Virus record (IMG/VR): IMGVR_UViG_2740892270_000011
Reading direction: 5' to 3' (one strand)
Length of the DNA: 8,247 nucleotides
Source of the DNA: a virus
Lineage: Duplodnaviria > Heunggongvirae > Uroviricota > Caudoviricetes
Shown in pieces: positions 1 to 8,247 of this stretch. The notes below the pieces were generated by a model that had not been told where the DNA came from, did no database searches, and was given only the letters and a program-made list of their open reading frames with translations. The position numbers were made by a program, and so were the translations under genes. The stretch's first letter is position 1. The number at the start of each line of letters is the position of its first letter.

Positions 1-61
1 CATCAGATGGCTGCTTAAAAAAAGAACAAATGGTAGTGTCCGCTATTGCCAGTACACCTCA
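1..61. repeat. Left arm of a perfect 61-bp inverted repeat (partner 8150..8210); abuts the window edge so may extend further left
   Basis: Reverse complement of 1..61 equals 8150..8210 at 61/61 positions; identity breaks at 62 versus 8149. Confidence 0.9.
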
Positions 62-203
62 GGGTATAAGGGGTTATGGCCACCGGACTACCAAACGGCT
101 GCCAGCCCTCTTTCAGTTTATGTGTCAGCTTTTCCGCAAGATCTGACGGCGGCGCCGCCCTGACAACATCATAGTGTTTAAATGCCATGGTTCTTTCCAC
201 CAT
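15..203 (-). CDS. Small late-region phage protein, 57-62 aa, resembling the DUF1737-type proteins found just upstream of lysis genes; start is ATG at 203 or more likely ATG at 188
   Basis: Open frame with TAA at 15..17. Sequence MAFKHYDVVRAAPPSDLAEKLTHKLKEGWQPFGSPVAI fits the DUF1737 pattern as recalled (Y.VV...LE..L.EGW.P.GSP); not verified. Weak SD-like GGTGGAAAG precedes the ATG at 188. The last 14 codons and stop lie inside the inverted repeat. Confidence 0.5.
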   Translation of the reverse strand: MVERTMAFKHYDVVRAAPPSDLAEKLTHKLKEGWQPFGSPVAITPYTLRCTGNSGHYHLFFF

Positions 204-448
204 CTGAAAAATAATTCTTTAAAATACCTGACATGTAATACAGAAAAAACACAAAACCATACCTTAAATAAAAACCTGATTATCAAGCAGATATGCATGG
301 ATAAACTACAAGACGAGATATAAACCACCCTGCATTTAAATAAACAATAAACAACATCAGAAAAATAATTCTGCTCTATGGTTTACATTCAAAAATATCA
401 TTTATACTTTTCAGAACATCACCAGCAAGGCATAAACAAGGAAACTAA

Positions 449-784
449 ATGAAGTGGATTGTGATTGATACAGTTATCCAGCCATCATGCGGAATATCTT
501 TTTCAGTCATATGGAGTAAAATAAAATTAATAATCTGGTATCAATCGGATGCTTTCTTACCTCCTGAAAGTATATTTACACTGACTCACACAGGCATCAT
601 GCTCAATAACAAAGTGCTACCTGTAACCATTTACAACGTAGTACCATTCAATAAAACATTCTGGAATTCAATCAAAAATAGCCAGGAATGCCCTACAAAT
701 ACAGATAACGTATTGAATGAATGCTTTAATAACCGTTGCACTCTGCAAATATGTCCTTATGGACTAAAACAACAAAGTCCATAA
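449..784 (+). CDS. Hypothetical 111-aa protein in an AT-rich island, with a C-terminal Cys pattern C-x10-C-x4-C-x4-C; no family recognised
   Basis: SD AAGGAAA (438..444) lies 4-6 nt before ATG 449. A 111-codon open frame is unusual in DNA this AT-rich. Opposite strand to the late operon. Confidence 0.4.
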
Positions 785-787
785 GGA
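754..787. repeat. 12-bp perfect inverted repeat (tccttatggact / agtccataagga) with a 10-nt spacer, spanning the last codons and stop of ORF 449..784
   Basis: Direct reading: 754..765 is the reverse complement of 776..787. Confidence 0.7.
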
Positions 788-804
788 GTTTACTCACATC
801 TGAC

Positions 805-840
805 AAAATCAATATAAACAGCCCCTCCGGAGAGGGGCTG
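805..840 (-). terminator. Candidate intrinsic terminator for minus-strand transcripts (9-bp GC-rich stem, 4-nt loop, then a T-rich tract)
   Basis: Stem cagcccctc (819..827) pairs with gaggggctg (832..840). On the minus strand it is followed by TTTATATTGATTTT. Confidence 0.35.
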
Positions 841-1079
841 GAGAGTGGCGCTATGTGCCATTGCATGGTGCCGGGTGCCTCCCGGTGAATTCAGTACCAG
901 CACCTGAATCCGCGATTATCCCATATACCTACTCGCTGATTGCCCCTCCGCACAGGGGGATTCACCATGCCAGTTTCTTTTAACAAACTCCCCGCAAAAC
1001 AGACAACTGTCAACCGTCTGAATTGTGAAGTATTTAAAAATTTCTCCCGCTAACTGATACCCGGCTAACAGTCTGGCGT

Positions 1080-1422: not shown

Positions 1423-2481
1423 TCATCCGTTCTGGCTGACTAAATCCTGTACTTCCCGAACCGTCTGCTCAAAACGTTCAGTCTCCAGCTCAACGCCAAT
1501 TGCACGACGCCCGAGCGCCAGTGCCGCTTTCACTGTCGAACCCAACCCCATGAAAAAATCTGCAATCAGGTCACCCGGACGACTGCTAGCGCTGATTATC
1601 TGCTGCAGCATTTCTGCCGGTTTTTCGCACGGATGTTTCCCGGGATAGAACTGCACCGGTTTATGCGTCCACACATCGGTATACGGCACCTGCACCGTCA
1701 CGCCAAAATACCGCCGCAGATGTTTATATTCACTCAGCAGCTCCGCATACTGCCGGTTCAGTGAGGTATACGTATCCACCAGCTGGTGGTGGAGCTTTTC
1801 CAGTTCACCACGCCGATGCTTCTCTTCTGCCACCCGGGCAAACAGCGCCTGTAATTTCAGATAATCGCTTTCATTCGGCAACTGCCACTGACCGGCACTG
1901 AACCAGTGCGACACCATGTTTTTCTTTCCTGTGGCATCTGCAATCTGTTTTGCCGTTATCCCCAGGGCAGCTCGCGCATCACGAAAGTAAGAAATCAGCG
2001 GGGCCATCACATGCTGTTTCAGTGCACTGCCCTTCGCCGCATACCCGGCATCTTTCGGACGATACGGCCCCTGATAATGTTCCGCGAACAGAATGCGCTC
2101 TGTGGCGGGGAAATACGCCCGCAGGCTTTCCTTGTTGCATCCGTTCCAGCGTCCGGACGGCTTCGCCCAGATAATATGGTTCAGCACACTGAAGCGTTCA
2201 CGCATCATGATTTCGATATCAGATGCCAGGCGATGACCACAGAACAGGTAAAGACTTCCGGCAGGTTTCAGCACCCGCCAGAACTGCGCCAGACACTGGT
2301 CCAGCCACTTCAGGTAATCATCGTCGCCCTTCCACTGGTTATCCCAGCCCTCAGGCTTCACTTTAAAGTACGGCGGGTCCGTGACTATCAGGTCAACAGA
2401 ATTTTCGGGTAACGACCGGATAAATTCCAGGCAGTCGGCGTTGATTAACTCACAACTGGATATTTTTACAGTATTAAGCAT
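1423..2481 (-). CDS. DNA N6-adenine/N4-cytosine methyltransferase, beta-class order (DPPY motif before the AdoMet FxGxG motif), 352 aa; prophage cargo
   Basis: LIVTDPPYF near the N-terminus and DFFMGLGST near the C-terminus. A central segment (ITAKQIADATGKKNMVSHWF) looks like a helix-turn-helix insert. Full-length open frame. Confidence 0.9.
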   Translation of the reverse strand: MLNTVKISSCELINADCLEFIRSLPENSVDLIVTDPPYFKVKPEGWDNQWKGDDDYLKWLDQCLAQFWRVLKPAGSLYLFCGHRLASDIEIMMRERFSVLNHIIWAKPSGRWNGCNKESLRAYFPATERILFAEHYQGPYRPKDAGYAAKGSALKQHVMAPLISYFRDARAALGITAKQIADATGKKNMVSHWFSAGQWQLPNESDYLKLQALFARVAEEKHRRGELEKLHHQLVDTYTSLNRQYAELLSEYKHLRRYFGVTVQVPYTDVWTHKPVQFYPGKHPCEKPAEMLQQIISASSRPGDLIADFFMGLGSTVKAALALGRRAIGVELETERFEQTVREVQDLVSQNG

Positions 2482-2872: not shown

Positions 2873-3146
2873 TGTTGTACTCCTGAACAAGAGCAAATAA
2901 TTCTGAATTAGCAACCATGAACTCATCGCAAACCCTCTGTATAGCATCACTATTCAGAATAATAACGTCTCTTCCCGAAAGACGATCAGGAGTACAGAAC
3001 AAAACTGTCAAACGGCTGAAGGCCTTTGCTCGTGCTGCATTGACTATATCAATACGCTGCCTAAGGATGAAACACCCCGACGCCTCATCAATATTCACTC
3101 TACCCACACCATATGAATGATAAATATTTAATGCTGAAAAAACCAT
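2873..3146 (-). CDS. Hypothetical protein, N-terminal 91+ aa visible with the C-terminus inside the N block; AT-rich; no family recognised
   Basis: Frame open from ATG 3146 (the track extends to a TTG at 3173) down to the N block: MVFSALNIYHSYGVGRVNIDEASG... No convincing SD, so the start is uncertain. Confidence 0.3.
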
Positions 3147-3283
3147 TAGACCGTATAACAAACACTCAATCAATACTTAACAGAACTTTTATTTTTGACA
3201 AACATAAAATATTTTCAACAATATCCTGAGCCAGGTATATTTCAGTATAAGGCTCTGCCGGAAGGAATCTGGAAGAATGAATA

Positions 3284-3360
3284 TGGCGCGCTGTACTGGA
3301 TTCGAACCAGTGACCGATTGCTTAGAAGGCAATTGCTCTGTCCGGCTGAGCTAACAACGC
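3284..3360 (-). tRNA. tRNA-Arg with anticodon UCU (reads AGA), the argO/argN-like rare-codon tRNA typical of lambdoid late regions
   Basis: Minus-strand 77-nt cloverleaf: acceptor GCGTTGT / ACAGCGC, D-arm GCTC..GAGC, anticodon stem ATTGC / GCAAT with loop CTTCTAA, T-arm ACTGG-TTCGAAT-CCAGT, encoded CCA. Confidence 0.85.
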
Positions 3361-3399
3361 TGAATACCGATAATGGACCGCCATCGGGGACCCGCCCCC

Positions 3400-3659
3400 N
3401 NNNNNNNNNNNNNNNNNNNNNNNNNNNNNNNNNNNNNNNNNNNNNNNNNNNNNNNNNNNNNNNNNNNNNNNNNNNNNNNNNNNNNNNNNNNNNNNNNNNN
3501 NNNNNNNNNNNNNNNNNNNNNNNNNNNNNNNNNNNNNNNNNNNNNNNNNNNNNNNNNNNNNNNNNNNNNNNNNNNNNNNNNNNNNNNNNNNNNNNNNNNN
3601 NNNNNNNNNNNNNNNNNNNNNNNNNNNNNNNNNNNNNNNNNNNNNNNNNNNNNNNNNNN
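3400..3659. other. Run of 260 N (masked or unsequenced) between the tR'-like terminator and tRNA-Arg; could hide further tRNAs
   Basis: Literal n characters. Confidence 1.
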
Positions 3660-3730
3660 ATAACTCTTGTCGAAAAAGCCAGCAAGCTGAAAGACAGGTA
3701 TTCACCGCCACCAGCGCGTTTACTGTACTG

Positions 3731-3760
3731 ACGCGATTTCAGTCATAAAAAACCCGCTCG
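3731..3760 (-). terminator. Intrinsic terminator downstream of the Q-like gene (tR'-like position)
   Basis: 7-bp stem aacccgc (3741..3747) / gcgggtt (3754..3760), 6-nt loop; on the minus strand it is followed by TTTTTTAT. Confidence 0.6.
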
Positions 3761-3833
3761 GCGGCGGGTTGTAGAAACTCTTCTAACGTCAGGCATAAAA
3801 CGCCCATCGTTATAACGAATTTACCACAGATTC

Positions 3834-4164
3834 CGGAAAAATCAACCTTGTTACCTAGTTACCTTTTTTANNNNNNNNNNNNNNNNNNNNNNNNNNNNNN
3901 NNNNNNNNNNNNNNNNNNNNNNNNNNNNNNNNNNNNNNNNNNNNNNNNNNNNNNNNNNNNNNNNNNNNNNNNNNNNNNNNNNNNNNNNNNNNNNNNNNNN
4001 NNNNNNNNNNNNNNNNNNNNNNNNNNNNNNNNNNNNNNNNNNNNNNNNNNNNNNNNNNNNNNNNNNNNNNNNNNNNNNNNNNNNNNNNNNNNNNNNNNNN
4101 NNNNNNNNNNNNNNNNNNNNNNNNNNNNNNNNNNCGGAAAAATCAACCTAGTTACCTTTTTTAA
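3834..4164. repeat. Near-identical direct repeat immediately flanking the N block 3871..4134 (copy 1 at 3834..3870, copy 2 at 4135..4164)
   Basis: Both copies read cggaaaaatcaacc-tagttacc-tttttta. Copy 1 carries an extra ttgttacc 8-mer. Copy 2 is in-frame coding sequence of the Q-like gene. Confidence 0.8.
3871..4134. other. Run of 264 N (masked or unsequenced); hides the 3' end of the Q-like gene and any late promoter
   Basis: Literal n characters. Confidence 1.
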
Positions 4165-4965
4165 CTGCCGCTCAGCCCATGCTTCTTCAATATCAAACCG
4201 AGTCACCAGCGCATCATAGAATTTCTTAACTGTTTTTTCCCATGACGCGCGTGTTATCTGGTTTGTCACCTCGCATATAGCATTAAATGCCTCCGTTGAT
4301 GGTAGTCTTTCATAGCCACGACCACCACAACGCTGGCAGTCTCTGATAACAGGCATACCACGTTTTACCGACTCTTCACGATGAATGGCGACACCACGCC
4401 CACGGCAATCCTTACAGGCGGTGGAAACCTCACCCTTTCCGCCACACTCCGGACAGGCAACTTTTACCACCTCCCTGACTTTTTTCCATTCTTCCCAGTA
4501 AGACGGATACACACCTTTCGTACACTTTGCCCATACCGGCGGCTTACCATCCGGATACTGGATCTTGTTTGTAAAAACCTCGCTTTCAATAAATTTTTTT
4601 CCGTGACAGCAGGGGCACTGTTTTTTGCTCGCCGCGCTACGGGCATAATCTTCAAACGCATACGAAGCCATAATACGCATCACTGCCGGTTTTATTTCTG
4701 CCGGGAGTTTTCTTAACGCCGCCACGCGATCACACCGACTGAGTGCATATTCTGTCAGCAATTCTGTTGCCCGCTCTCTGTCATTCATACTAATGCCCAT
4801 TTTCCCAAGGAACGCAGAAACCCCCATCTCAGCCCGATTCTGTGTCATGCCCTGCGCGGCCATCACATCAGTGATACTCAGCGCATCTTTCGACGTTGAG
4901 GCCGATGCATCAGTCAGGCCGGGGGATTTTGGGGAGTAGTATTTCGGTAAATCTTCCAGTTTCAT
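4135..4965 (-). CDS. Q-like late antiterminator with a DnaJ-type zinc-finger module; 277 codons visible, 3' end inside the N block
   Basis: Four CxxCxGxG repeats (CPCCHGKK, CPECGGKG, CKDCRGRG, CQRCGGRG). N-terminus MKLEDLPKYYSPKSP resembles Q proteins of Qin-type prophages as recalled (unverified). Start ATG overlaps the rusA stop (ATGA). Sits in the canonical Q slot between rusA and the terminator/tRNAs. Confidence 0.65.
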
Positions 4966-5253
4966 TTTTTGACCTGCCCTTCAAGCATTATGGGATAAAT
5001 CTTCACCCCCAGACGTCCACCAGATACTGGCTGAGCACGAACGATATTGATTTCATCAAACTGCTCATCGTCCATTAGCAACCCCGCATGCGTCAGCGCA
5101 TCCAGCGGCGCTTTCAGAATATTGTCCAGGTCACGGCGGCGCTTATCCGGTGGTTCTGCAATAATTTTTATTGCCAACCTTCCGGACAGGCTTAATTTCA
5201 GCCGCTGCTGGCGAACAATAAGCGCCACTGCCCGGCGATAACGCTCCCCGGCT
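4962..5253 (-). CDS. rusA: Holliday-junction resolvase RusA; C-terminal 97 aa visible, 5' end inside the N block
   Basis: PDKRRRDLDNILKAPLDALTHAGLLMDDEQ...GGRL matches the RusA catalytic core of E. coli RusA ([30 protein letters not shown], from memory). Stop TGA at 4962..4964. Confidence 0.85.
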
Positions 5254-5503
5254 NNNNNNNNNNNNNNNNNNNNNNNNNNNNNNNNNNNNNNNNNNNNNNN
5301 NNNNNNNNNNNNNNNNNNNNNNNNNNNNNNNNNNNNNNNNNNNNNNNNNNNNNNNNNNNNNNNNNNNNNNNNNNNNNNNNNNNNNNNNNNNNNNNNNNNN
5401 NNNNNNNNNNNNNNNNNNNNNNNNNNNNNNNNNNNNNNNNNNNNNNNNNNNNNNNNNNNNNNNNNNNNNNNNNNNNNNNNNNNNNNNNNNNNNNNNNNNN
5501 NNN
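5254..5503. other. Run of 250 N (masked or unsequenced); hides the rusA start and the end of the DUF968-like gene
   Basis: Literal n characters. Confidence 1.
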
Positions 5504-6407
5504 CAGCCTTTGTTCCCATCCCTCCCAGTCCATGACCAATGATGTGATGCGGATCATCTGCCTGATTGCCACACGTCATGCATTTCTGCGTTTTTACCCA
5601 GCGCGTGTATACAGGCATCTCTTCCCGTTGTGATTTCTGGCGCTGGAGATACTGAGCCGGTGACTCCGGATCAACGGCAATGCTGACCACCGTCTTTTCC
5701 TGTGGTGGGTTCTGTTGCTGGTGGACGTGAGGCAGTAACGCAATATTTTTTGTGCGCTGCTTCAGTATGCTGGTGGCTGTCTGCTCTCCCGGTATGATGT
5801 CGCTTTCACTGTACACAGAGCGAATTTTTTCCGCACGCAACCCCAGCGAACGACGTAATACCGCTTCCGGTAGCGCGTCCGCCACCTGATTGCGGACCGC
5901 CCACCAGGATAATTCAGCCAGAGATAATTCACGCTCCTGCGTACCGCTTATTGCGTGACCGATGACGTCAATCATCCATGCTGACAGGTTTTGATGAGCA
6001 AGTTGCTCGAGTGATTCGGATGTCTGGTCACGCAGCTGGTTGTCGCAGTGCCAGCACAACACCATTGCGCCGGTACCATAACGGTGAATGACGGTTTCGC
6101 TGTGATGATAATCGCCGTGTGGCCACTGGCAGGATTTAATATGGCGCAACAGCCAGTCAGACAATGCACCAGCACCACCAGCAGCACGAATCACCCGTGC
6201 GTTACTGAAAAACGGCAGCAATGTTTTGTCTTCCACCAGCGGCTGGCGAGCGGCAGGAACGACCCCGGACGGCAGATTACGCATGCTTTTTGGTTCCGGC
6301 TCCACCAGTATTCTGCCGTTATGGAATGCTGACATTGATTCACGGCCTGGCTTAACGATAACCAGACCGAGTTCCGGTACCAGAACAGGTCGAAGTAATA
6401 CCCGCAC
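5504..6407 (-). CDS. Lambdoid nin-region protein, DUF968/YdfU-like (family name from memory); 301 codons visible, 3' end inside the N block
   Basis: Long open frame starting at GTG 6407 behind GGAGG. Cys/His cluster CMTCGNQADDPHHIIGHGLGG just before the N block. Position immediately upstream of rusA. Confidence 0.65.
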
Positions 6408-6482
6408 ATTACCTCCAGATCCGTTGCTGGAATGTGCGGGACGGACGCGTTGGCCGTTCGGAGTAAGGGAGCCTGACGGAGA

Positions 6483-6764
6483 TTATCCAGTGACGGTAGT
6501 CGAGGCTAAGGGCTTTTTTAACCTCGCATCCGCGCCTGCGGTAACACTGAATGAGCCATTCGGCCTGTTCTTCAGTGCATGGGGGATGCTGGTACCAATC
6601 AGATTTAAATGCGTGAGAGCGCCGCCCGTGCCTGCTGGCAAAGACGGCTGAATTATCAGAATTGTGTAGTCTGGAAGGCAGTGGCTGACAATAGCGCCAT
6701 TCTCAACGCGCACAGTATAGAGGCCATCTTCACTAAAAATTTCACGTAATTCTTCGATTTTCAT
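6483..6764 (-). CDS. Hypothetical small protein (93 aa) between hok and the DUF968-like gene; C-terminal half is low-complexity and may be frameshifted or over-extended
   Basis: ATG 6764 preceded by GGAAGGA with an 8-nt spacer; N-terminus MKIEELREIFSEDGLYTVRVENG looks protein-like. Confidence 0.4.
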   Translation of the reverse strand: MKIEELREIFSEDGLYTVRVENGAIVSHCLPDYTILIIQPSLPAGTGGALTHLNLIGTSIPHALKNRPNGSFSVTAGADARLKKPLASTTVTG

Positions 6765-6846
6765 CAACAGAATCCTTCCAGATAAATAGCACTCCCCTGT
6801 TCGGGGTCCATCCCTCTTCTCCCTGCGCGCTACTTAAGTATTTTTG

Positions 6847-6876
6847 ATTCTATTCCGGCACCATCTAAAACTTCAA
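6847..6876 (-). promoter_or_regulatory. Candidate sigma70 promoter (TTGAAG, 18-nt spacer, TAGAAT) reading leftward into ORF93, DUF968-like, rusA and Q-like
   Basis: On the minus strand the -35 is at 6871..6876 and the -10 at 6847..6852, immediately downstream of the hok terminator. Confidence 0.35.
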
Positions 6877-6884
6877 ACGCGTTG

Positions 6885-6916
6885 AAAATAAAAACAAAAA
6901 CCCGCCGAAGCGGGTT
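6885..6916 (-). terminator. Intrinsic terminator downstream of hok
   Basis: Stem aacccgc (6899..6905) / gcgggtt (6910..6916) with loop cgaa; on the minus strand it is followed by TTTTTGTTTTTATTTT. Confidence 0.6.
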
Positions 6917-6984
6917 AAGTGTGGGTGCATTGAGGATGCCTGCCCCATCAGAGGTGGCGAGGGATTTCTCCCCCGCCTGGTCTC

Positions 6985-7140
6985 TTACTCCTCAGGTTCG
7001 TAAGCTGTGAAGACAGCGACCTCCGTCTGGCCGGTTCGAATTCGTACCTCGCAGAGGTCTTTCCTCGTTACCAGTGCCGTCACTATGACGGTTAAACAGA
7101 TGACGATCAGGGCGATTAACATCGCCTTTTGCTGCTTCAT
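6985..7140 (-). CDS. hok: Hok-family type I toxin (51 aa, single transmembrane helix); an in-frame upstream ATG at 7197 would give a 70-aa mok-like extension
   Basis: MKQQKAMLIALIVICLTVIVTALVTRKDLCEVRIRTGQTEVAVFTAYEPEE carries the Hok signature (LTRK.LCE.R, EVA.F.AYE). SD AAGGAG lies 9 nt before ATG 7140. Leader resembles hok mRNA leaders as recalled. Confidence 0.85.
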   Translation of the reverse strand: MKQQKAMLIALIVICLTVIVTALVTRKDLCEVRIRTGQTEVAVFTAYEPEE

Positions 7141-7188
7141 AGCCTGCTTCTCCTTGCCTTTCGGCACGTAAGAGGCTAACCTAGATTT

Positions 7189-7260
7189 GCCGTTCATAGA
7201 TTGAGCCTCAGATTAATGTTAAGCGTCTTGCCGGACGCGTAATGTTAACTGGGGCTTTTC
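7189..7260 (+). ncRNA. Candidate Sok-like antisense RNA opposite the hok leader and mok-like start; boundaries approximate
   Basis: Plus-strand promoter-like TTGCCT (7154..7159), 17-nt spacer, TAACCT (7177..7182) lies inside the hok 5' region in the position expected for sok. No clean terminator found. Confidence 0.25.
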
Positions 7261-7316
7261 TCTATCTGCCTTTTGGTGTTCATGCCTGAGACAGATAGCC
7301 TCAAGCACCCGCTGCA

Positions 7317-7344
7317 ATTCTACTTAACTCTCCTTTTCCCGCAA
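7317..7344 (-). promoter_or_regulatory. Candidate hok promoter (TTGCGG, 16-nt spacer, TAGAAT) with predicted transcript 5' end near 7310
   Basis: The -10 is at 7317..7322 and the -35 at 7339..7344 on the minus strand. The predicted mRNA begins GGGUGCUUGAGGCU..., resembling the 5' end of plasmid R1 hok mRNA as recalled. Confidence 0.45.
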
Positions 7345-7431
7345 ACCGTTTTTATCCCCAGCGGCAAATCGAATACACCACCAGCGCCACCGCCATCGCA
7401 ATTCCTACCGTTGTTAATGCTTCAGGCCAGG

Positions 7432-7776
7432 TCATCGTAAAATATCCTCCACGCTTATCAGTCCGTTCCGCTCCAGATAACTCATCGCCTTATCCGGTAA
7501 TTTGCAGTCTGGCTTCGCTTTCCTCAGTTGCCAGGTTAACTGCTTTACCAGCATGGTTAACTCATCGACCAGACGCTGATATCCCACTGGTTTGTATTCA
7601 TGCAATTTACCGGCTGGCTCTGCTGCCAGCGATACCAGTGCGATTTCCAGAACAGCAATATCCATCTTATATGTGCGGATGATGTCATGGTCGATTGTGC
7701 CCGGTATGCACAGTCTCTGTGCTTCAATAGTCTCCTCTGCGTGAGCTATTAACTGCTCTCTGGTAAAAGTCGTCAT
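7432..7776 (-). CDS. Hypothetical small protein B (114 aa), paralogous at its N-terminus to upstream gene A; unknown function
   Basis: ATG 7776 preceded by AGAAGGGG with a 7-nt spacer; start overlaps the stop of A (ATGA). Sequence [12 protein letters not shown]...[10 protein letters not shown]... Confidence 0.55.
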
Positions 7777-7940
7777 GCCGTAGCCCCTTCTTGATATTTT
7801 TCAAACCAGAACACAACCGGCTCTGCTTCCAGCGATGCCAGCGCAATCCGTGCCAGTTCCATTTGTTCACCACGGGTAAGCCCGTTTTCAAGCGGGTTTT
7901 TAATGAACAATTCAATACGTTCTTTGGTAATAGTGGTCAT
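7773..7940 (-). CDS. Hypothetical small protein A (55 aa), translationally coupled to B; absent from the supplied ORF track because it is short
   Basis: ATG 7940 preceded by AAGGAG with a 6-nt spacer. Hand translation [55 protein letters not shown] with TGA at 7773..7775. Confidence 0.5.
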
Positions 7941-7950
7941 GTGTTACTCC

Positions 7951-8181
7951 TTAACCCGCAGTGCTTTCAACTGATGAGGGGAACAAAATCTTTTCATCAA
8001 ACCCTGCATTCATATCATGAACAGCAACACACCAATCCATCGACGAACGATTATCAAGAGCCTCCATGATTTCATCCATGCGGCGTAGGTCATACAGGTA
8101 AATGCTTTTATCGCCAATGGTGTAAAAGCCAATTTTTTTCGGTGATGGATGAGGTGTACTGGCAATAGCGGACACTACCAT
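7951..8181 (-). CDS. Hypothetical ORF76; its first 10 codons lie in the right arm of the inverted repeat, so it may be a truncated or chimeric gene
   Basis: Open frame whose TAA stop (7951..7953) sits inside the SD region of gene A, an operon-like arrangement. No clear SD before ATG 8181; coding quality uncertain. Confidence 0.35.
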   Translation of the reverse strand: MVVSAIASTPHPSPKKIGFYTIGDKSIYLYDLRRMDEIMEALDNRSSMDWCVAVHDMNAGFDEKILFPSSVESTAG

Positions 8182-8210
8182 TTGTTCTTTTTTTAAGCAG
8201 CCATCTGATG
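8150..8210. repeat. Right arm of the perfect 61-bp inverted repeat (partner 1..61); carries a detached copy of the 3' end of the DUF1737-like gene
   Basis: Plus strand here encodes ..RCTGNSGHYHLFFF* as at the left arm, but the frame is closed by TGA at 8143..8145 just upstream. Confidence 0.9.
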
Positions 8211-8247
8211 ATATTTTTCCCTGAAGGCTGCCGGGGAGATATTCCCC

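Follow-up and report, generated by a model that had tools for sequence, protein, structure and literature searches.

Downstream of a rusA-like gene in a caudoviricete virus sequence (IMG/VR record IMGVR_UViG_2740892270_000011), an open reading frame occupies the position of the late antiterminator gene Q and carries cysteine motifs recalling those of the chaperone DnaJ, raising the question of which of the two proteins it encodes and whether its synthesis is tied to the recombination gene that it overlaps. We analyzed the whole stretch of 8,247 nucleotides, termed the window. On the minus strand, the frame starts with an ATG at 4965–4963 and stays open to position 4135, where it enters a run of N (N-run; 3871–4134). 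The gene order is DUF968, rusA and then Q, with rusA itself running into a further N-run (5254–5503).

4135–4965, minus strand: readable part of the Q antiterminator gene, codons 1–277 (open reading frame, PF03589, Q-lambda match, Foldseek)
4962–4965, minus strand: ATGA overlap of the Q start with the rusA stop, with the same 4-nt overlap annotated in the related contigs L001 and L002
4962–5253, minus strand: 3′ part of rusA, Holliday-junction resolvase (PF05866, 1.7e-11; RefSeq annotation of relatives)

The encoded protein matched the Pfam family 'Antitermination protein Q' (PF03589) with 179.1 bits against a cut-off of 26.7 (E = 1.8e-53), and PHROG 127 ('anti-termination protein Q-like') covered residues 1–273 at 4e-112. 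PF03589 is the Q-lambda family, one among three unrelated Q families together with Q21 (PF06530) and Q82 (PF06323) (PMC9388147). Likewise, a phmmer search of PDB sequences returned Q-lambda (7UBM/7UBN, 4MO1 and 7UBJ; best 3.6e-41). We also obtained an AF2 model, built from 50 homologs with a mean pLDDT of 79.7, for which the best eight PDB matches in Foldseek were all Q-lambda chains (E 3e-13 to 9e-7); the match to 7UBN had an E value of 3.2e-13 and a TM of 0.73 on target. An overall fold with a four-helix body and a helix-turn-helix (HTH) is in line with these matches. Both checks proposed in the first-pass annotation, a profile comparison of the Q family with the DnaJ cysteine-rich domain and a structure prediction, thus came out in favor of Q, with PF03589 above and DnaJ_CXXCXGXG below its cut-off. 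The reading as a late antiterminator is fully supported, the PF03589 gene being followed by a promoter, a pause element and a terminator. We assign the gene, with a probability of roughly 0.85, to a Q-lambda-family late-gene antiterminator of a lambdoid prophage, co-transcribed with the nin-region genes; by analogy to Q-lambda, it would act in antitermination.

The similarity to Q-lambda (4MO1, 7UBJ–7UBN) extends over the N-terminal 'torus' segment, the helical HTH body and the C-terminal VTR, at about 30% identity overall. Only residues 1–122 and 182–273 were aligned by phmmer, including the equivalents of G39 and of L202/T206/R207 as well as both CxxC pairs. The first of these segments matched Q-lambda 1–123 with 92 bits, G39 included, and the C-terminal L..VTR is kept. 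In Q-lambda, the N-terminal segment (1–44) forms the nozzle of the RNA-exit channel, onto which the C-terminal helix docks (PMC9388147). As the alignment falls into these two pieces, the protein contains about 60 extra residues (123–181), comprising two cysteine knuckles and a long β-hairpin that Q-lambda lacks.

4594–4617, minus strand: cysteine motif 1, CPCCHGKK, residues 117–124 (C117/C120 conserved in at least 90% of 50 homologs)
4432–4455, minus strand: cysteine motif 2, CPECGGKG, residues 171–178 (C171, C174 and G176 invariant in 50 homologs)
4393–4416, minus strand: cysteine motif 3, CKDCRGRG, residues 184–191 (Q-lambda C118/C121 in the 7UBM/4MO1 alignment; invariant)
4315–4338, minus strand: cysteine motif 4, CQRCGGRG, residues 210–217 (Q-lambda C144/C147 in the 7UBM/4MO1 alignment; invariant)
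4423–4599, minus strand: insertion of about 60 residues (123–181) relative to Q-lambda (phmmer gap, AF2 secondary structure, tip variation)

Four evenly spaced CxxCxGxG motifs had been described for this protein. Four CxxC knuckles are indeed present, but their starts lie unevenly 54, 13 and 26 residues apart, and while motifs 2, 3 and 4 are exact, motif 1 is degenerate and ends in KK where the family consensus reads CDCCxGxG. None of 20,000 protein shuffles contained four or more CxxCxG, and across the 50 homologs (Escherichia, Salmonella, Klebsiella, Citrobacter, Serratia, Enterobacter) all eight cysteines show little or no variation, indicating that the motifs are not due to chance. C184/C187/C210/C213, invariant in the same homologs, correspond to Q-lambda C118/C121/C144/C147 with an equal spacing of 22 residues; the CxxCxGxG-22-CxxCxGxG zinc ribbon, second in order along the window Q, is common to both proteins. 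The insertion is located at the transition from the Q-lambda body to the zinc-ribbon 'arm' and is flanked by motifs 1 and 2, between which the AF2 model places a long β-hairpin (strands 125–136 and 159–170). The tip of this hairpin (~137–158) varies strongly among homologs in length and sequence, whereas the knuckles do not.

Since motifs 3 and 4 form one zinc site by homology to Q-lambda, motifs 1 and 2 would form the other, yielding two putative zinc sites whose metal binding and pairing we deduce from the sequence. Motif 1 would then represent the first knuckle of an extra zinc ribbon, with motifs 1 and 2 closing the base of the inserted hairpin as a second ribbon beside the Q arm. This inserted ribbon probably adds or changes contacts to DNA, sigma region 4 or RNA polymerase (RNAP). 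We also considered whether the insertion arose by tandem duplication of the ribbon, an origin that we do not claim: a comparison of the two halves gave a BLASTP E value of 0.002 over 29 residues, and hhalign of the family sub-alignments aligned the 12-residue knuckle alone with a probability of 37%.

The likeness to DnaJ is real but shallow. The Pfam profile DnaJ_CXXCXGXG (PF00684) matched residues 171–218 with 30.1 bits, below its cut-off of 32.7, and NCBIfam TIGR02349 (DnaJ_bact) reached 28 bits against a cut-off of 377. Neither Pfam nor NCBIfam detected a J domain or C-terminal substrate-binding domains in the frame, so that of the DnaJ-type zinc finger originally proposed a partial, sub-threshold match stands, unaccompanied by other DnaJ domains. 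The same profile also matches Q-lambda through its own two motifs (23 bits) and the Escherichia coli K-12 protein YdfT, which passes the cut-off (35.4 bits), identifying the motif as a trait of the Q-lambda-type arm rather than a captured chaperone domain. In E. coli DnaJ the motifs are spaced roughly 17/22/14 and the zinc centers are nested, with motifs 1+4 and 2+3 pairing. The 54/13/26 spacing of Q is different, as is its deduced 1+2 and 3+4 pairing, although the DnaJ cysteine-rich domain (PF00684), along with anti-TRAP, ranks among the closest known systems.

These data bear on the idea that Q took up a true DnaJ cysteine-rich domain and functions in a chaperone-like manner or as a holdase, besides or in place of antitermination. 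Beyond the profile matches of the window Q and YdfT, it could draw on a homolog (P0029) named 'chaperone protein DnaJ' by its source, a label that we consider a mistake. We regard such a capture as extremely improbable, as the G/F region is absent along with the other DnaJ domains, both scores lie under their thresholds, motifs 3 and 4 are orthologous to a Q-lambda arm that is itself a weak DnaJ match, and homology to Q-lambda implies a 3+4 pairing that differs from the DnaJ arrangement. The sole match of a literature search for DnaJ-like motifs in Q was an annotation remark on gp45 of Acinetobacter phage Loki (PMC5313236).

Within the Q-lambda family, the closest parallel in architecture is given by K-12 YdfT, also termed QuuQ (b1559; Qin cryptic prophage), which combines the four-motif design with PF03589 and DnaJ_CXXCXGXG matches, and by the RefSeq 'antitermination proteins' WP_115208794.1 and WP_072646276.1. 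The neighborhood of ydfT is as in the relatives of the window, with DUF968/ydfU upstream and hokD further up; YdfT differs in its length of 250 residues, a shorter hairpin tip and the lack of an upstream rusA. Same-architecture homologs occur in Salmonella, Klebsiella, Citrobacter, Enterobacter and Serratia, and Q DNA was matched in 3,154 of the 5,426 complete E. coli genomes; the PGAP annotation there lists an 'antitermination protein' adjacent to a 'RusA family' gene. The four-motif form, including QuuQ, is the widespread one in Enterobacterales, and a Q with four cysteine motifs is ordinary and already known, as thousands of E. coli genomes, K-12 among them, have it annotated. A literature search on the function of QuuQ/YdfT returned nothing, and to our knowledge all structural work on the PF03589 family concerns the two-motif Q-lambda. 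A 337-residue homolog (P0001) was considered as the full-length form of the window Q and rejected, as it is a different Q with a partial internal duplication, in which the part extending from MRIMASY to motif 2 also precedes residue 20 of a second copy. We take this duplication as another sign of recombination inside Q genes.

At its 5′ end, the Q start indeed overlaps the stop of rusA as ATGA, an arrangement that L001 and L002 share, and the upstream frame is RusA. The further claim, that the overlap ties Q synthesis to the recombination gene, found no specific support. In its strict form, Q synthesis would depend on rusA translation through termination-reinitiation at the ATGA, so that recombination and late-gene expression would be linked in their regulation. 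Aside from the conserved overlap itself, the comparison with other Q genes speaks against this: lambda, where Q has the equal gene position, shows an overlap of the same 4 nt between the nin gene ninI and Q, and ydfT starts after a 13-nt gap behind ydfU with no rusA upstream. In addition, the Q start has a weak Shine-Dalgarno sequence (AGG) 7 nt upstream of the ATG in an A-rich region, and RNA structure hiding the start was not detected, the region having no more structure than shuffled versions of it (z +0.96). Strict dependence on rusA is therefore unlikely; the overlap is normal tight operon packing, as part of which translational coupling of the two genes is plausible.

At the 3′ end, the true stop lies under the N-run, as had been pointed out for the C-terminus as a whole, but only about eight codons remain beyond the readable part according to contigs with an identical junction. 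Six IMG/VR contigs share this junction, and all six read on as GAATCTGTGGTAAATTCGTCATAA into LIFPESVVNSS-stop, giving a protein of 284 residues. L004 and L007, two of these six, show 100% identity to the window across 4135–5253, and from 5504 onward L004 continues at 100% to 8247 and L007 at 99.96% to 8200. From these two contigs, the Q stop would be codon 285 at about 4111–4113. For the masked bases, whose recovery had been suggested, both the Q stop and the continuation of the promoter are thus predicted from the six contigs and not read from the window itself.

4149–4156, minus strand: 8-bp unit T(T/A)GTTACC in single copy (present twice in the common allele, together with a TAA stop)

The extension originates from this unit. 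In the common allele (L001), Q ends in KKVTR followed by TAA after 273 residues, with the stop located inside a tandem 8-bp pair, TTGTTACC TAGTTACC. The window Q has one unit only; this abolishes the stop, and the frame runs on as VTRLIFP into the N-run, adding 11 residues at the C-terminus compared to Q-lambda and the common allele. The common RefSeq orthologs end at 273 residues as well, whereas WP_072646276.1 (strain H8) is a 284-residue read-through like that of the window. As the extreme C-terminus of Q-lambda is functionally important (PMC9388147), the 11-residue extension could alter activity. The one-unit frame of 284 residues also crosses its own promoter, PR′.

4141–4146, minus strand: PR′ copy A, −35 TTGATT inside the last Q codons (direct reading, six identical-junction contigs, lambda PR′ alignment)
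3806–3870, minus strand: second module copy, fully readable, with Q end, 8-bp units, PR′ and pause element (direct reading)
3851–3853, minus strand: second copy, TAA stop of the Q end
3848–3863, minus strand: second copy, both 8-bp units
3840–3845, minus strand: second copy, PR′ −35 TTGATT, followed by a 16-nt spacer
3818–3823, minus strand: second copy, −10 TAAATT, preceded by TGG
3806–3811, minus strand: second copy, sigma-dependent pause element AACGAT, followed by GGG
3744–3770, minus strand: tR′-like intrinsic terminator, AACCCGCCGCCGAGCGGGTT followed by TTTTTT (terminator scan; same element in L004)

The promoter had been described as masked. This applies to copy A beyond its −35, which lies under the N-run 3871–4134; the −35 itself is visible, and a complete second copy is readable. 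About 290 nt downstream of the first Q 3′ end there is another one, again accompanied by PR′, a pause element and a terminator, so that the window contains two late-promoter modules, as D1/D2 repeats spaced by 293–301 nt. The order of the cassette is TTGATT-16-TAAATT, 6 nt, AACGAT/AACTAT, GGG and the terminator at 3744–3770, in line with the canonical Q cassette of promoter, pause element and terminator downstream of Q (PMC9388147).

We identified PR′ by alignment to lambda PR′. A scan for consensus sigma70 promoters did not call it in 3660–5000 or in L004, because 8 of 12 positions match and the threshold is 9. The alignment showed the −10 hexamer TAAATT and the 6-nt spacing to the AACGATGGG pause element (AACGAT) to be identical in both sequences, whereas the spacer between −35 and −10, which in lambda contains the Q-binding element (QBE), differs, so that the Q-binding element of the window is presumably a different one. 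The PR′ leader is also much shorter, with the terminator about 45–70 nt downstream of the PR′ start compared to about 190 nt in lambda.

Taken from the Q-lambda mechanism (PMC9388147), the following sequence of events can be proposed. Q would bind a Q-binding element between −35 and −10 of PR′, just downstream of its own gene, as suggested by the homology to Q-lambda. There it would meet RNAP that sigma70 keeps paused on the AACGAT/AACTAT element and place its N-terminal 44 residues as a nozzle in the RNA-exit channel. The polymerase would then read through the nearby terminator into the tRNA and late genes. In Shiga-toxin phages, toxin output is controlled by the Q-PR′ module, making typing of Q/PR′ alleles of practical use. 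In the window, Q represents the regulator of the late switch in a common type of lambdoid prophage, with little importance beyond its correct annotation.

The surroundings of Q are composed of blocks that alternate between two paralogous late-region alleles, separated by five N-runs (1080–1329, 2609–2872, 3400–3659, 3871–4134 and 5254–5503). The blocks 1–1079, 2873–3399, 4135–5253 and 5504–8247 are of the L004 type (99.6–100% identity), and the blocks 1330–2608 (100%) and 3660–3870 (99.5%) of the L001/L008 type. This order is unmatched in the relatives found, leaving the local context of Q uncertain, and the alternation means that four of the five N-runs coincide with joints absent from every relative. 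In L004, just 263 nt, comprising tRNA-Arg, tRNA-Ile, the terminator and PR′, separate the equivalents of 3399 and 4135. Instead of masking colinear sequence, the N-runs may mark scaffold gaps where repeat contigs were interleaved; alternatively, the window may represent a real tandem mosaic as in L005 and L008, both of which contain truncated Q copies. The exact window junction was absent from the 5,426 complete E. coli genomes, in which copies with 293 nt of extra spacing were also not found, and searches of species-representative genomes with a gapped pattern across the N-run and with the junction 34-mer gave no match for either.

Such rearrangements could mean that Q is decaying in a cryptic or rearranged prophage, where a stop-removing 8-bp deletion and a scrambled late region render it non-functional or irrelevant. 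The allele is rare, with six one-unit read-through contigs of the window type against at least 120 two-unit contigs in IMG/VR; its exact junction is missing from the 5,426 complete E. coli genomes; the block order is without counterpart; related sequences hold truncated (L005, L008) or duplicated (P0001) Q copies; and the altered C-terminus is of importance in Q-lambda. The 277 readable codons are nevertheless intact with all conserved residues kept, the extension amounts to just 11 residues, and PR′, pause element and terminator are intact. Four complete genomes, among them E. coli H8, moreover contain an independent one-unit allele, annotated as a 284-residue antitermination protein. Decay is accordingly quite unlikely, and the assignment as a late-gene antiterminator is retained.

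On a far more speculative level, the four-motif Q branch may recognize the promoter or RNAP by means of an additional specificity arm formed by its inserted ribbon with the hypervariable tip, with 8-bp slippage at the stop toggling the protein between 273 and 284 residues, pushing the frame across its own target promoter and thereby tuning late-gene switching. We give this combined scheme a very low chance of being correct.

Lysis or structural genes were not found within the window. Downstream of Q, it contains a tRNA-Arg (anticodon TCT; 3284–3360, minus strand), which in relatives forms part of a cluster of Ile, Arg and Arg tRNAs like that of Stx-type lambdoid phages; the remaining members are probably located under the N-runs 3400–3659 and 1080–1329. 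The same downstream region encodes a DNA methyltransferase (1423–2481, minus strand; PF01555, 7.9e-42) and an open reading frame at 449–784 on the plus strand, which is probably IraM-like, as the L001 gene in the DNA matching window positions 59–1040 is annotated as anti-adapter IraM. Rfam identified the sRNA STnc100 (810–999, minus strand; 133.6 bits) and the sok antitoxin RNA (7135–7310, minus strand; 112.4 bits), the latter adjoining a hokD-type toxin frame at 6985–7197.
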